Source of the DNA: Escherichia coli
GTDB taxonomy: Bacteria > Pseudomonadota > Gammaproteobacteria > Enterobacterales > Enterobacteriaceae
Strand: one strand, 5' to 3'
Length of the DNA stretch: 64,000 nucleotides
Assembly: GCF_044647545.1 (NCBI RefSeq)
Contig: NZ_CP172818.1
Made by a program: the position numbers and the translations under genes. This document shows positions 2,241-47,049 of the stretch, piece by piece. The stretch's first letter is position 1. Each line of letters begins with the position of its first letter. The notes beneath the pieces are model-generated. The model made no database searches, was not told the origin of the DNA, and worked only from the letters and a program-made list of their open reading frames with translations.

Positions 2241-3716
2241 TTACGTCAGATGCGTTTTTCGTAGCGCCAGATAATCCAGTAAACCACCAAGCACGACGCC
2301 AGAAAGGGCGACTAAAACCCCGACTTCCAGCAGAGCAGGCAGGAAAGAGAAGTGCGTCAAATCCAGCGCGTCCATCGTCAACAGCAGTAACCACACGGCC
2401 AACAGGCTGACGCCCGCCGCCAGTGTCCACATGGCAAAGGCATAACCTGCCGGATATTCGGTACGGGAGATAAAGTTGTCATTTACTCGTGTATATTCAA
2501 GCGTCTGGCGACAAATCAGCAGTAAAATAAGCCCTGGTACGGCAGCGGCGACGGAGAACAGATAGAATGTCGACCAGCCGTGTGCTTCAACAAACCAACC
2601 CGCCACGGGGCCGACATAAACTCGCCCTACAGCAGAAAGCGCTGAGAGCAGGGCAAATTGAGTAGCGGAAAATGACTTATTACACAGCGTCATTAACAGC
2701 GCGACAAAGGCTGATGTACCCATCCCGCCACAGAGGTTTTCGAAAAAGACGGCTGCACCCATGCTGTAGAGATGCTTATCAGTAATCGACAGCAGCCAGT
2801 AACCGGCGTTAGATGCACCTTGTAAAATGCCGAAAATCAGCAGTGCACGGAACAGCGACAGGCGCTGCATCAAAATCCCACCGTACAATGCGCCAACAAT
2901 GGTCGCCAGTAAGCCAAGCGTTTTGTTAACCACGCCTACTTCACCCGCATCAAACCCGACGCCGCGAATCAAAAACGTGGTTGTCAGGCTCATAGCGAAT
3001 GCGTCGCCCAGCTTATACAGCACGATAAGAAGCAAAATAAGCCAGGCATTATTGCGACCAAAGAAATCGCGCAGAGGTGCAACAACCGCTTGTTCCAGCG
3101 TTTTGGGCACAGGAATGGTGTCGGTGGGTTCTGGTGCAAGCAACGTCGCGATAATACAGGGGATCAACAGCGCCGCCATCAACCAGTACATGCCCTGCCA
3201 GCCCAGCCATTTATCTGCCAGCCACAGGGCTAAGCCGCCGGAAACCAGCATCCCTAAACGGTAACCCAGCACGCTGATTGCCGCGCCCGCACCACGTTCT
3301 TCTGCCGGGAGCACATCGGTTTTCCATGCATCGAAGACAATATCCTGGGAGGCAGAGCAAAAAGCGATCACCACCGCCAGTGCCGCCATCCAGCGGAGCT
3401 GGGTGCCTGGTTCGAGAAAACCCATCGCCGCAATGGCGACTAATAACAGAATTTGCGTGGCGAGCAGCCAACCGCGCCGCCGCCCGAAAAATGGGGGCGT
3501 GTAGCGGTCCATCAGTGGTGACCAGAGGAATTTAAAAACGTAAGCCTGGCCTACCAGAGAGAAGAAACCAATGGTTTTAAGATCGATATTCTCGACCGTC
3601 ATCCAGGCCTGTAAGGTGCCGGACGTCAGGGCGAGCGGTAGCCCGGAAGCAAAACCCAGAATCAGCAATATGGCTGAACGTGGCTGTTGAAAAATACGTA
3701 AATATTGACTGGACAT
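2241..3716 (-). CDS. ampG: Muropeptide (anhydromuropeptide) permease, MFS
   Basis: 491 aa polytopic membrane ORF recognised as AmpG. Confidence 0.95.
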   Translation of the reverse strand: MSSQYLRIFQQPRSAILLILGFASGLPLALTSGTLQAWMTVENIDLKTIGFFSLVGQAYVFKFLWSPLMDRYTPPFFGRRRGWLLATQILLLVAIAAMGFLEPGTQLRWMAALAVVIAFCSASQDIVFDAWKTDVLPAEERGAGAAISVLGYRLGMLVSGGLALWLADKWLGWQGMYWLMAALLIPCIIATLLAPEPTDTIPVPKTLEQAVVAPLRDFFGRNNAWLILLLIVLYKLGDAFAMSLTTTFLIRGVGFDAGEVGVVNKTLGLLATIVGALYGGILMQRLSLFRALLIFGILQGASNAGYWLLSITDKHLYSMGAAVFFENLCGGMGTSAFVALLMTLCNKSFSATQFALLSALSAVGRVYVGPVAGWFVEAHGWSTFYLFSVAAAVPGLILLLICRQTLEYTRVNDNFISRTEYPAGYAFAMWTLAAGVSLLAVWLLLLTMDALDLTHFSFLPALLEVGVLVALSGVVLGGLLDYLALRKTHLT

Positions 3717-14990: not shown

Positions 14991-15022
14991 GTGGTGCCGG
15001 ATGCTCAAGCCGCATCCGGCGA
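14991..15022. repeat. REP-like palindromic element / terminator hairpin between fadM and queC
   Basis: GCCGGATGC ... GCATCCGGC inverted repeat typical of REP sequences. Confidence 0.65.
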
Positions 15023-40081: not shown

Positions 40082-40088
40082 GGACAAT

Positions 40089-42102: not shown

Positions 42103-44034
42103 ATGAGTTATCAGGTCTTAGCCCGAAAATGGCGCCCACAAACCTTTGCTGACGTCGTCGGCCAGGAACATGTGCTGACCGCACTGGCGAACGGCTTGTC
42201 GTTAGGGCGTATTCATCATGCTTATCTTTTTTCCGGTACCCGTGGCGTCGGAAAAACCTCTATCGCCCGACTGCTGGCGAAGGGGCTAAACTGCGAAACC
42301 GGCATTACCGCGACGCCGTGCGGCGTGTGCGATAACTGTCGTGAAATCGAGCAGGGGCGCTTTGTCGATCTGATTGAAATCGACGCCGCCTCGCGTACCA
42401 AAGTCGAAGATACCCGCGACCTGCTGGATAACGTCCAGTACGCTCCGGCGCGTGGTCGTTTCAAAGTTTATCTCATCGACGAAGTGCATATGCTGTCGCG
42501 TCACAGCTTTAACGCACTGTTAAAAACCCTTGAAGAGCCGCCAGAGCACGTTAAGTTTTTGCTGGCGACGACCGATCCACAGAAATTGCCGGTGACGATT
42601 TTGTCACGCTGTTTGCAATTTCATCTCAAGGCGCTGGATGTCGAGCAAATTCGCCATCAGCTTGAGCACATCCTCAACGAAGAACATATCGCTCACGAGC
42701 CGCGGGCGTTGCAATTACTGGCGCGCGCCGCTGAAGGCAGCCTGCGAGATGCCTTAAGTCTGACCGACCAGGCGATTGCCAGCGGTGACGGCCAGGTTTC
42801 AACCCAGGCGGTCAGTGCGATGCTGGGTACGCTTGACGACGATCAGGCGCTGTCGCTGGTTGAAGCGATGGTCGAGGCCAACGGCGAGCGCGTAATGGCG
42901 CTGATTAATGAAGCCGCTGCCCGTGGTATCGAGTGGGAAGCGTTGCTGGTGGAAATGCTCGGCCTGTTGCATCGTATTGCGATGGTACAACTTTCGCCTG
43001 CTGCACTTGGCAACGACATGGCCGCCATCGAGCTGCGGATGCGTGAACTGGCGCGCACCATACCGCCGACGGATATTCAGCTTTACTATCAGACGCTGTT
43101 GATTGGTCGCAAAGAATTACCGTATGCGCCGGACCGCCGTATGGGCGTTGAGATGACGCTTCTGCGCGCGCTGGCGTTCCATCCACGTATGCCGCTGCCT
43201 GAGCCAGAAGTGCCACGCCAGTCCTTTGCGCCCGTCGCGCCAACGGCAGTAATGACGCCAACCCAGGTGCCGCCGCAACCGCAATCAGCGCCGCAGCAGG
43301 CACCGACTGTACCGCTCCCGGAAACCACCAGCCAGGTGCTGGCGGCGCGCAAGCAGTTGCAGCGCGTGCAGGGAGCAACCAAAGCAAAAAAGAGTGAACC
43401 GGCAGCCGCTACCCGCGCGCGGCCGGTGAATAACGCTGCGCTGGAAAGACTGGCTTCGGTCACCGATCGCGTTCAGGCGCGCCCGGTGCCATCGGCGCTG
43501 GAAAAAGCGCCAGCCAAAAAAGAAGCGTATCGCTGGAAGGCGACCACTCCAGTGATGCAGCAAAAAGAAGTGGTCGCCACGCCGAAGGCGCTGAAAAAAG
43601 CGCTGGAACATGAAAAAACGCCGGAACTGGCGGCGAAGCTGGCGGCAGAAGCCATTGAGCGCGACCCGTGGGCGGCTCAGGTGAGTCAACTTTCGCTACC
43701 AAAACTGGTCGAACAGGTGGCGTTAAATGCCTGGAAAGAGGAGAGCGACAACGCAGTATGTCTGCATTTGCGCTCCTCTCAGCGGCATTTGAACAACCGC
43801 GGCGCACAGCAAAAACTGGCTGAAGCGTTGAGCACGTTAAAAGGTTCAACGGTTGAACTGACTATCGTTGAAGATGATAATCCCGCGGTGCGTACGCCGC
43901 TGGAATGGCGTCAGGCGATATACGAAGAAAAACTTGCGCAGGCGCGCGAGTCCATTATTGCGGATAATAATATTCAGACCCTGCGTCGATTCTTCGATGC
44001 GGAGCTGGATGAAGAAAGTATCCGCCCCATTTGA
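42103..44034 (+). CDS. dnaX: DNA polymerase III subunits tau (full length) and gamma (via -1 frameshift)
   Basis: 643 aa; AAA+ clamp-loader motifs (GTRGVGKTS); the slippery heptamer inside the ORF is listed separately. Confidence 0.97.
   Translation: MSYQVLARKWRPQTFADVVGQEHVLTALANGLSLGRIHHAYLFSGTRGVGKTSIARLLAKGLNCETGITATPCGVCDNCREIEQGRFVDLIEIDAASRTKVEDTRDLLDNVQYAPARGRFKVYLIDEVHMLSRHSFNALLKTLEEPPEHVKFLLATTDPQKLPVTILSRCLQFHLKALDVEQIRHQLEHILNEEHIAHEPRALQLLARAAEGSLRDALSLTDQAIASGDGQVSTQAVSAMLGTLDDDQALSLVEAMVEANGERVMALINEAAARGIEWEALLVEMLGLLHRIAMVQLSPAALGNDMAAIELRMRELARTIPPTDIQLYYQTLLIGRKELPYAPDRRMGVEMTLLRALAFHPRMPLPEPEVPRQSFAPVAPTAVMTPTQVPPQPQSAPQQAPTVPLPETTSQVLAARKQLQRVQGATKAKKSEPAAATRARPVNNAALERLASVTDRVQARPVPSALEKAPAKKEAYRWKATTPVMQQKEVVATPKALKKALEHEKTPELAAKLAAEAIERDPWAAQVSQLSLPKLVEQVALNAWKEESDNAVCLHLRSSQRHLNNRGAQQKLAEALSTLKGSTVELTIVEDDNPAVRTPLEWRQAIYEEKLAQARESIIADNNIQTLRRFFDAELDEESIRPI
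43386..43397 (+). promoter_or_regulatory. dnaX programmed -1 ribosomal frameshift site (A AAA AAG) with -1 frame stop
   Basis: A_AAA_AAG at 43386-43392 in the correct register of the dnaX frame (codons GCA AAA AAG); -1 frame reads AAA AAA GAG TGA; GC-rich structured region immediately downstream. Confidence 0.85.
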
Positions 44035-44071
44035 TCGTAAGCACAGCTTACGTTCGTCATCCTTAACGTGA

Positions 44072-44415
<344 letters not shown>

Positions 44416-44416
<1 letters not shown>

Positions 44417-45021
44417 TGCAAACCAGCCCGCTGTTAACACAGCTTATGGAAGCACTGCGCTGTCTGCCGGGCGTTGGCCCGAAGTCGGCGCAGCGTATGG
44501 CGTTCACGCTGCTTCAGCGCGATCGTAGCGGCGGGATGCGTCTGGCGCAGGCGCTCACCCGGGCGATGTCGGAAATCGGCCACTGCGCCGATTGCCGCAC
44601 TTTCACCGAACAGGAAGTCTGTAACATCTGTTCGAATCCGCGTCGTCAGGAAAACGGTCAAATCTGCGTGGTGGAGAGTCCGGCGGACATTTACGCCATT
44701 GAGCAGACGGGGCAGTTTTCAGGTCGTTATTTTGTGTTGATGGGGCACCTGTCGCCGCTGGACGGCATCGGTCCGGATGACATCGGCCTTGATCGCCTGG
44801 AACAGCGTCTGGCAGAGGAAAAAATCACTGAAGTGATCCTCGCCACCAACCCCACGGTTGAAGGTGAAGCTACCGCTAACTACATTGCCGAGCTTTGTGC
44901 GCAATATGACGTGGAAGCCAGCCGAATCGCTCATGGCGTACCGGTTGGCGGCGAACTGGAAATGGTCGATGGCACCACGCTGTCACATTCCCTTGCCGGG
45001 CGTCATAAGATTCGTTTTTAA
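44416..45021 (+). CDS. recR: Recombination protein RecR
   Basis: 201 aa with C4 zinc finger (CADC...CNIC) and Toprim domain; start overlaps ybaB stop (TGATG). Confidence 0.96.
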
Positions 45022-45050
45022 GCAAACGAGAGCAGGATCACCTGCTCTCG

Positions 45051-45079
45051 CTTGAAATTATTCTCCCTTGTCCCCATCT
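45051..45079 (+). promoter_or_regulatory. sigma32 heat-shock promoter of htpG
   Basis: CTTGAAA (45051-45057), 14-bp spacer, CCCCATCT (45072-45079); matches sigma32 consensus. Confidence 0.75.
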
Positions 45080-45130
45080 CTCCCTCATCCTGTTTTTAAC
45101 CTTAAAATGGCATTATTGAGGTAGACCTAC

Positions 45131-47005
45131 ATGAAAGGACAAGAAACTCGTGGTTTTCAGTCAGAAGTGAAGCAGCTTCTGCACCTGATGATCCATTCTC
45201 TCTATTCCAATAAAGAAATCTTCCTGCGTGAGCTTATCTCTAACGCCTCCGATGCGGCGGACAAGCTGCGTTTCCGCGCGCTTTCTAACCCGGACCTGTA
45301 CGAAGGTGATGGCGAACTGCGCGTTCGTGTCTCTTTCGATAAAGACAAGCGCACGCTGACCATCTCCGATAACGGCGTGGGGATGACCCGCGACGAAGTG
45401 ATTGACCATCTGGGGACTATCGCTAAATCCGGCACCAAATCATTCCTCGAATCCCTGGGTTCTGACCAGGCGAAAGACAGCCAGCTGATCGGTCAGTTTG
45501 GTGTTGGTTTCTACTCTGCGTTTATCGTGGCCGACAAAGTGACCGTGCGTACTCGCGCGGCAGGCGAAAAACCAGAAAACGGTGTTTTCTGGGAATCGGC
45601 TGGTGAAGGTGAATACACCGTTGCCGACATCACCAAAGAAGATCGTGGTACTGAAATCACCCTGCATCTGCGTGAAGGCGAAGACGAGTTCCTCGATGAC
45701 TGGCGCGTGCGTTCCATCATCAGCAAATACTCCGACCATATCGCGCTGCCGGTAGAGATCGAAAAACGCGAAGAGAAAGACGGCGAAACCGTTATCTCCT
45801 GGGAGAAAATCAACAAAGCGCAGGCGCTGTGGACTCGTAACAAGTCGGAAATCACCGATGAAGAGTACAAAGAGTTCTATAAACACATCGCCCACGACTT
45901 TAACGATCCGCTGACCTGGAGCCACAACCGCGTTGAAGGTAAGCAGGAGTACACCAGCCTGCTGTACATTCCGTCTCAGGCACCGTGGGATATGCGGAAC
46001 CGCGATCATAAACACGGTCTGAAACTGTATGTTCAGCGTGTGTTCATCATGGACGACGCAGAACAGTTCATGCCGAATTATCTGCGCTTCGTGCGTGGTC
46101 TGATTGACTCCAGCGATCTGCCGCTGAACGTTTCCCGTGAAATCCTCCAGGACAGCACGGTAACGCGTAACCTGCGCAATGCGCTGACCAAGCGTGTGCT
46201 GCAAATGCTGGAAAAACTGGCGAAAGACGACGCGGAAAAATACCAGACCTTCTGGCAACAGTTTGGCCTGGTACTGAAAGAAGGTCCGGCGGAAGATTTC
46301 GCTAACCAGGAAGCGATCGCCAAACTGCTGCGTTTTGCTTCTACCCATACCGATTCTTCTGCGCAGACCGTATCTCTGGAAGACTACGTTTCCCGCATGA
46401 AAGAAGGGCAGGAGAAAATCTACTACATCACCGCAGACAGCTATGCGGCAGCGAAGAGCAGCCCGCACCTGGAACTGCTGCGTAAGAAAGGCATCGAAGT
46501 TCTGCTGCTTTCCGACCGCATCGATGAGTGGATGATGAACTATCTGACTGAGTTCGACGGTAAACCGTTCCAGTCGGTGTCTAAAGTTGACGAGTCGCTG
46601 GAAAAACTGGCTGACGAAGTTGATGAGAGCGCGAAAGAAGCGGAGAAAGCACTGACTCCGTTCATCGACCGTGTGAAAGCCCTGCTCGGCGAGCGCGTGA
46701 AAGATGTCCGTCTGACTCACCGTCTGACCGATACGCCAGCGATTGTCTCTACCGACGCGGACGAAATGAGCACCCAGATGGCGAAACTGTTTGCCGCAGC
46801 GGGCCAGAAAGTGCCGGAAGTGAAATACATCTTCGAACTGAACCCGGATCACGTACTGGTGAAACGTGCGGCAGATACTGAAGATGAAGCCAAGTTCAGC
46901 GAGTGGGTAGAACTGCTGCTGGATCAGGCGCTGCTGGCAGAACGCGGCACGCTGGAAGATCCGAACCTGTTTATTCGTCGTATGAACCAGCTGCTGGTTT
47001 CCTGA
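45131..47005 (+). CDS. htpG: Chaperone HtpG (Hsp90 family)
   Basis: 624 aa ORF recognised as HtpG. Confidence 0.97.
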
Positions 47006-47009
47006 TGTC

Positions 47010-47049
47010 ATGCCGGATGACCTTTTTGTCATCCGGCATTTTTCTTTTC
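47010..47049 (+). terminator. Rho-independent terminator after htpG
   Basis: 12-bp stem ATGCCGGATGAC / GTCATCCGGCAT followed by TTTTCTTTTC. Confidence 0.85.

Follow-up and report, generated by a model that had tools for sequence, protein, structure and literature searches.

Hairpins at transcript 3′ ends, with a U-tract and without one, form well-described classes. Dar and Sorek (2018; PMC6061677) described stable, U-poor stem-loops at the precise steady-state 3′ ends of Rho-terminated transcripts; Rho-loading sites lie just downstream of such stem-loops, the genes concerned are mostly weakly expressed, and upstream A-rich tracts are reported to be lacking at these termini. For σ32 promoters the consensus CTTGAA-N13-17-CCCCATNT has been quoted (PMC4263515). 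The σ32 promoter of htpG is a textbook element that has found wide use as a burden sensor, and both this promoter and the 3′ end of the neighbouring recR transcript are already catalogued. In Escherichia coli the two signals lie side by side, with a U-poor hairpin after recR and the −35 element of htpG directly behind it. At the recR/htpG junction two transcription units meet in a compact boundary; the joint statement, that the boundary exists and that the hairpin has its role at the RNA level, is one in which we have high confidence.

The window, that is the whole stretch of E. coli DNA analysed here (64,000 nucleotides of contig NZ_CP172818.1), carries the genes apt-dnaX-ybaB-recR-htpG-adk co-directionally on the plus strand, as read from the list of open reading frames and from the K-12 layout. 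Adding 449,989 to a window coordinate gives the coordinate in K-12 MG1655 (NC_000913.3). The recR coding sequence (44416–45021, plus strand) ends with the stop codon TAA at 45019–45021, and htpG, which encodes the Hsp90 chaperone, occupies 45131–47005 on the same strand; both assignments follow the open reading frames, RefSeq annotation (for recR that of 100% identical genomes) and the K-12 layout. A 915-base query running from recR into htpG is 100% identical in several complete E. coli genomes and at least 95% identical in 5,423 of 5,426 genomes. Between the two genes the window differs from K-12 MG1655 at a single base, 45085, which is T in the window and A in K-12 and lies one base 5′ of the mapped htpG start.

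The −35 element CTTGAAA (45051–45057, plus strand) is followed, after a 14-nt spacer, by the −10 element CCCCATCT (45072–45079), an arrangement that satisfies the σ32 consensus including its 13–17 nt spacing. The pattern CTTGAAA-N12-16-CCCCAT has one match in the window, versus 0.02 expected. SMRT-Cappable-seq places the htpG start at K-12 495075 (Yan et al., 2018; PMC6131387), which is 45086 in the window, 7 nt 3′ of the −10 element. The Salmonella htpG reporter begins at −45 (PMC5137417), and its 45-nt leader agrees with this start. A single predominant RpoH site is reported for htpG in a ChIP-exo study (PMC9104697). This is the known htpG σ32 promoter, and the earlier note had called it correctly. 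The untranslated leader extends from the published start to the ATG (45086–45130, plus strand) and contains the Shine–Dalgarno sequence GAGG at 45118–45121. Together, the promoter and leader form a C-rich, G-poor stretch directly 3′ of the hairpin (45051–45130, plus strand; 23 C and 9 G in 80 nt), a composition that is partly inherent to a σ32 promoter.

Direct reading of the sequence 5′ of the promoter gives the hairpin arms GAGAGCAGG (45028–45036) and CCTGCTCTC (45041–45049) around the loop ATCA (45037–45040), exact to the base with the 9-bp stem that the earlier note had placed after recR. One further C–G pair makes this a perfect 10-bp stem, CGAGAGCAGG/CCTGCTCTCG, so that the recR-distal RNA stem-loop spans 45027–45050 on the plus strand, 5 nt past the recR stop codon. 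CTTGAAA does sit immediately behind it: the first base of the −35 element directly follows the stem, and as RNA the element forms the start of the hairpin tail. Seven of the 10 pairs are G–C and the loop is 4 nt long; relative to the htpG start the hairpin covers −59 to −36. The RNA of 45010–45075 folds with −22.6 kcal/mol (z = −5.2), a value equalled by none of 200 shuffled sequences, and the stem-loop by itself contributes −17.8 kcal/mol. A first-order Markov model predicts 0.35 perfect hairpins per 64 kb with stems of ≥10 bp and loops of 3–8 nt. The hairpin and the σ32 promoter match are each above chance expectation.

Just 5′ of the stem lies the flank CAAA (45023–45026, plus strand), of which CAA (45023–45025) is complementary to the UUG of the −35 element (45052–45054). 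A45026 is opposite C45051 and forms a 1 × 1 internal loop between the stem and this CAA/UUG extension. The RNAalifold consensus includes the three CAA/UUG pairs. Within CAAAC (45023–45027) the bases C5, A6, A7 and C9 are invariant in 19 of 19 Enterobacteriaceae sequences, while the adjoining stem turns over; the CAA/UUG pairs never vary, which is conservation and not covariation. If formed, they would leave the mapped recR 3′ end base-paired. A longer lower stem predicted by RNAfold, in which the recR codons UUUUAAGC pair with GCUUGAAA, was rejected as unsupported: alignment column 4 varies without compensation, and RNAalifold favours the shorter CAA/UUG extension instead. The arms of the hairpin are also skewed in composition among Enterobacteriaceae. 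Purines make up 0.55–0.8 of the 5′ arm (as much as 1.0 where the stem is short and partial), and pyrimidines predominate in the 3′ arm, which has CTCC or CTCTC just 5′ of CTTGAA; the cause of this skew might be a preference for C/T 5′ of σ32 −35 elements, or else a bias shared by terminators in general.

In published Term-seq data (Adams et al., 2021; PMC7815308, supplementary file 1), the recR transcript has its steady-state 3′ end at K-12 495042(+), or 45053 on the plus strand of the window. It is listed as a ‘primary’ end with ∼1,800 reads in LB at OD 0.4, one of three growth conditions. Position 45053 is the second U of CUUGAAA, 3 nt past the 10-bp stem and within the −35 element, so that in vivo the mapped end of recR falls at the hairpin while the mapped start of htpG lies at 45086, beyond it. 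An ‘internal’ Term-seq 3′ end is found at window position 44028 (K-12 494017), 6 nt 5′ of the dnaX stop codon; it adjoins a CCCCATTT motif, just 5′ of ybaB. The transcription units listed by SMRT-Cappable-seq are apt-dnaX-ybaB-recR, dnaX-ybaB-recR, ybaB-recR, htpG and htpG-adk (PMC6131387), recR being the final gene in all the variants that contain it. Substantial read-through from recR into htpG, which would speak against the insulation suggested in the earlier note, is not reported: the list contains no joint recR and htpG unit, with a sensitivity limited by low recR transcript numbers. The recR-end site is absent from the TERMITe tables, and the Term-seq tables searched held no minus-strand 3′ end at the hairpin. 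The regions of Rho termination called after bicyclomycin treatment (PMC7815308, supplementary file 2) include none at K-12 4948xx–4951xx, where an active htpG promoter would mask the signal.

A genome scan with RecR gave 80 loci, from Escherichia to Vibrio. In 57 loci, all from Enterobacterales, htpG follows recR at a distance of no more than 320 nt, and each of the 57 carries TTGAA-N-CCCCA(T/C) upstream of htpG. At 35 of the loci, in Enterobacteriaceae and Erwiniaceae, a stable hairpin stands close against the −35 element; they include Escherichia, Enterobacter, Citrobacter, Kluyvera, Pluralibacter, Shimwellia, Cedecea, Erwinia, Pantoea, Tatumella and Rosenbergiella. The mean stem-loop energy over these 35 loci is −15.4 kcal/mol, and the gap between hairpin and TTGAA is 0–3 nt in 33 of them. 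The two exceptions (L006 and L013) have bulged or mismatched stems that were truncated by the perfect-stem search. Between genera the hairpin sequence is mostly or entirely different, and the loop varies from 3 to 8 nt. The distance from the recR stop codon to TTGAA is 30–31 nt in 32/35 loci, and leader lengths range from 68 to 116 nt. This near-fixed distance hints at a constraint on the junction. We rejected it as proof of selection, because one ancestral deletion together with a small indel target explains it equally well.

Elsewhere in the Enterobacterales the junction is built differently. Yersiniaceae, Pectobacteriaceae, Hafniaceae and Morganellaceae have a longer intergenic region in which the recR hairpin lies 27–92 nt 5′ of the −35 element. 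In Serratia, Dickeya, Pectobacterium, Rahnella and Edwardsiella, where the promoter places no constraint on the tail, the hairpin is kept, mostly without a U-rich tail; the conserved function thus needs no U-tract.

Several loci carry further features around the junction. In Erwinia loci the sequence TTCAA 5′ of the stem reads exactly as the reverse complement of TTGAA in the −35 element, and in Pantoea, Tatumella and Rosenbergiella a CTTG direct repeat instead flanks the hairpin and might be a trace of hairpin replacement (loci of the two kinds: L027 and L036, both at 3110–3143; L029, L035, L048 and L061, 3104–3143). Serratia oryzae (L033, ∼3200–3370) has an insertion of ∼170 nt in the htpG leader containing a sequence that closely resembles the ERIC/IRU repeat core (…CCCCAGTCACTTAG…CTAAGCTCCTGGGGG…). 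In Vibrio fluminensis (L070, ∼3125–3300) several tandem units of ∼40 nt (…GGATGCGGGATGTGGGAACGTTCGGCTGTCGCCTCACTCAC…) directly follow a canonical recR terminator. Between recR and the htpG promoter, three Yersinia loci (L053, L055 and L062, ∼3130–3210) have the long inverted repeat GGGCGAT…ATCGCCC, with a loop of ∼45 nt, and 3′ of it a T-run, an architecture unlike both the compact and the Serratia types.

Covariation was assessed in an ungapped alignment of 19 Enterobacteriaceae sequences. Paired cells make up 94.7% of the stem positions, and compensatory two-sided changes are seen in 9 of the 10 pairs. None of 500 shuffles reached any of five pairing measures, slid controls were 42–55% paired, and RNAalifold independently recovers the same stem. 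Among the wobble cells, read on the plus strand, there are 16 G·U versus 3 A·C, and all 3 A·C stand at the loop-closing pair. This excess of G·U over A·C on the plus strand indicates selection on the recR-sense RNA, not on a DNA palindrome or a minus-strand hairpin. The hairpin is clearly under structural selection at the RNA level.

The class to which this hairpin belongs is less simple. The RNA has a GC-rich stem-loop in the recR sense next to the stop codon, with stem and loop in the range of intrinsic terminators (5–14 bp and 3–8 nt), and a 3′ end just past the stem. Its tail, CUUGAAAUUAUU, is A or U at 10/12 bases, and the first 8 bases, CUUGAAAU, contain 3 U versus the ∼5 or more expected of an intrinsic-terminator U-tract. 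A consensus terminator scan of both strands did not flag the hairpin, whereas it did flag the htpG terminator at 47010–47039; on the plus strand the miss is due to the tail having only 3 T in its first 8 bases, and on the minus strand, we infer, greedy stem extension consumed the T-run. A decay-weighted tail score, the formula of which reportedly goes back to d’Aubenton-Carafa and TransTermHP, is 2.49 for the hairpin; the htpG terminator reaches 5.15, a hairpin at 40086 reaches 4.34, and clear terminators in the window score 4.3–5.2. The htpG terminator itself is a REP-like GCCGGATG palindrome of 12 bp with a clear T-tract; long htpG reads end at K-12 497033 (window 47044), and an htpG-adk read-through unit is also listed. 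The recR hairpin is not a canonical intrinsic terminator. Of the ‘terminator-like structure’ in the earlier note there remain the recR 3′ end at 45053 and a conserved recR-sense RNA hairpin, but not the U-tract of an intrinsic terminator.

The hairpin itself may stop polymerase and insulate htpG. That release of polymerase at the recR hairpin is Rho-independent is our tentative first choice, which we hold at a little below an even chance. The hairpin would then act as a weak, non-canonical terminator: the A/U-rich −35 element (CUUGAAAUU) would supply the weak RNA:DNA hybrid normally provided by a U-tract, and the upstream CAA would pair with UUG and lengthen the stem. After release, the tail would be trimmed to the base of the stem, leaving a paired, exonuclease-resistant 3′ end. 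Most polymerases arriving from dnaX, ybaB and recR would be kept out of htpG, which would be reliant on its own σ32 promoter. Support for this reading comes from the invariant, tail-complementary CAA flank, A-rich flanks being reported absent from Rho-type termini, from the A/U-rich tail and from the conserved contact between hairpin and −35 element. The lack of a called bicyclomycin region points weakly the same way. That the 3′ end lies at +3 had been weighed as an argument against intrinsic termination and was dropped, since clear intrinsic mRNA terminators have ends at +4 to +6 in the Term-seq table that lists the recR end, and the position does not discriminate. Against intrinsic release stand the U-poor tail, its low score and the miss in the terminator scan, as well as the U-poor tails in relatives and the C-rich, G-poor composition of the 80 nt downstream. 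In addition, the 3′ end is listed under only one of the three growth conditions, the low recR transcript numbers may hide read-through, and the conserved contact could be one inherited ancestral deletion rather than the result of selection.

The principal alternative, a serious possibility that we place only slightly lower, would make the hairpin a protective stem-loop which does not release polymerase. Transcription would cross the htpG promoter and leader, Rho would load on C-rich untranslated RNA and terminate in the leader or in early htpG, and 3′-to-5′ exonucleases would trim the RNA back to the hairpin, giving the stable end at 45053. By analogy with the sites of Dar and Sorek (PMC6061677), 45051–45130 is a candidate Rho-loading region on such read-through RNA. 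The junction has what that class has, namely a U-poor stem-loop with a 3′ end immediately past a stable stem, more C than G directly downstream (23 versus 9 in the next 80 nt) and low expression, here of recR; moreover, the hairpin persists, mostly with no U-tract, in relatives whose tail is unconstrained. However, no bicyclomycin region is called, which is weak evidence given that an active htpG promoter would mask it, and the A-rich 5′ flank complementary to the tail is of the kind reported to be lacking at Rho-type termini. A good htpG ribosome-binding site also lies 70 nt past the hairpin, and translation from it should shield read-through RNA from Rho; such shielding predicts recR-htpG transcripts, and none is listed by SMRT-Cappable-seq. 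The intrinsic and the Rho-dependent readings are nearly even, and our preference for the former is slight; a mixture of intrinsic and Rho-dependent termination is quite possible. Under either mechanism the mature 3′ end (…CGCUU) should be base-paired and hence resistant to 3′ exonucleases.

We considered three further explanations. The hairpin could be a bidirectional or minus-strand terminator that stops antisense transcription coming from the htpG side, with UUUGCUUAAAAA as its tail; this tail is U-rich, being the complement of CAAAC plus the recR stop codon. On that strand the tail scores 3.90 versus 2.49 on the plus strand, and by direct reading a G·U pair lets the stem reach 14 pairs. Against this, the 16 G·U pairs of the plus strand would become C·A mismatches, and the converse A·C cells number only 3, all loop-closing. 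The flanking genes are moreover co-directional, and the Term-seq tables searched contain no minus-strand 3′ end here. We therefore regard antisense termination as very improbable.

A role in DNA is equally hard to sustain. The inverted repeat lies at −59 to −36, in the zone where the usual contacts of activators and of the C-terminal domain of the α subunit with DNA are made, and its position relative to the −35 element is conserved; it might serve as the operator of a dimeric regulator, or form a cruciform, and so modulate the htpG promoter. A protein site would, however, conserve bases, and here the pairing is conserved and the arm sequence is not. Tolerance of G·U but not of A·C is a signature of RNA rather than DNA, the loop length varies between 3 and 8 nt, and an RNA 3′ end maps at the base of the repeat. 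These observations leave the DNA-level explanation little likelihood. Hairpins are common in intergenic DNA of E. coli, and the window has REP-like GCCGGATG hairpins at 14996, 47010 and 56422, but the suggestion that a chance or REP-type repeat merely adjoins a real promoter has a negligible probability, being refuted by the strong covariation across 19 genera-level sequences and opposed by the fold z-score and the 0.35 such hairpins expected per window, by the absence of the GCCGGATG motif from a recR hairpin whose sequence varies freely between genera, and by an Rfam scan of 44000–46000 at a permissive threshold, in which no family matched, so that this is not a known repeat RNA.

A further reading is that the σ32 promoter insulates itself, its own sequence, when transcribed through, providing the signal that ends transcripts of the operon 5′ of it. 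The −35 hexamer would then be at once terminator tail and part of the stem, the C-rich −10 element and leader would act as a back-up for Rho loading, and the contact between hairpin and −35 element would be kept by selection rather than by inheritance. We think this dual use unlikely; if true, it would illustrate neatly how transcription signals can overlap and would introduce no new principle. It is also a possibility that released polymerase is handed directly to the adjacent htpG promoter.

Searches of the literature found no statement on covariation in this hairpin or on conservation of its −35 contact across two families, and none on a recR terminator, on an effect of bicyclomycin on htpG or on the recR/htpG junction. 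The covariation-kept hairpin and its contact with the −35 element, conserved over two families, are a small descriptive addition and not a new kind of element, and the boundary has little significance beyond housekeeping. Two practical consequences follow from its layout. Annotation pipelines that require a U-tract miss the recR hairpin, and in synthetic excisions of the ‘htpG promoter’ the bases just 5′ of the −35 element belong to the 3′ end signal of recR.

How does the junction compare with known systems? Terminators that follow recR in Vibrionaceae, some Morganellaceae and Arsenophonus occupy the same site after the stop codon and are similar in size; they differ in having clear U-tracts (e.g. 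GCCGCTGAATTCAGCGGCTTTTT) and in standing apart from every htpG promoter; for Vibrio, htpG was not found directly downstream of recR at these loci. With canonical intrinsic terminators, such as that of htpG (47010–47039), the recR hairpin shares a GC-rich 10-bp stem, a 4-nt loop, a site after the stop codon, a 3′ end within a few bases of the stem and, on the 5′ side, an A-rich flank complementary to the tail, but it is without their U-tract (3 U in 8 bases; score 2.49 versus 5.15). It resembles the Rho-type protective stem-loops (PMC6061677) in its U-poor, stable stem, its precise adjacent end, the excess of C over G downstream and low expression. It departs from them in its A-rich 5′ flank and in the lack of a called bicyclomycin-sensitive region, and the C-rich RNA downstream of recR is a promoter and translated leader, not an inert spacer. 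The promoter agrees with E. coli σ32 (RpoH) promoters in its −35 element, 14-nt spacer, −10 element, start 7 nt past the −10 and reported RpoH occupancy, and in itself does not differ from the known htpG promoter; its peculiarity is that the −35 element is directly preceded by, and as RNA partly paired with, the 3′ hairpin of recR.
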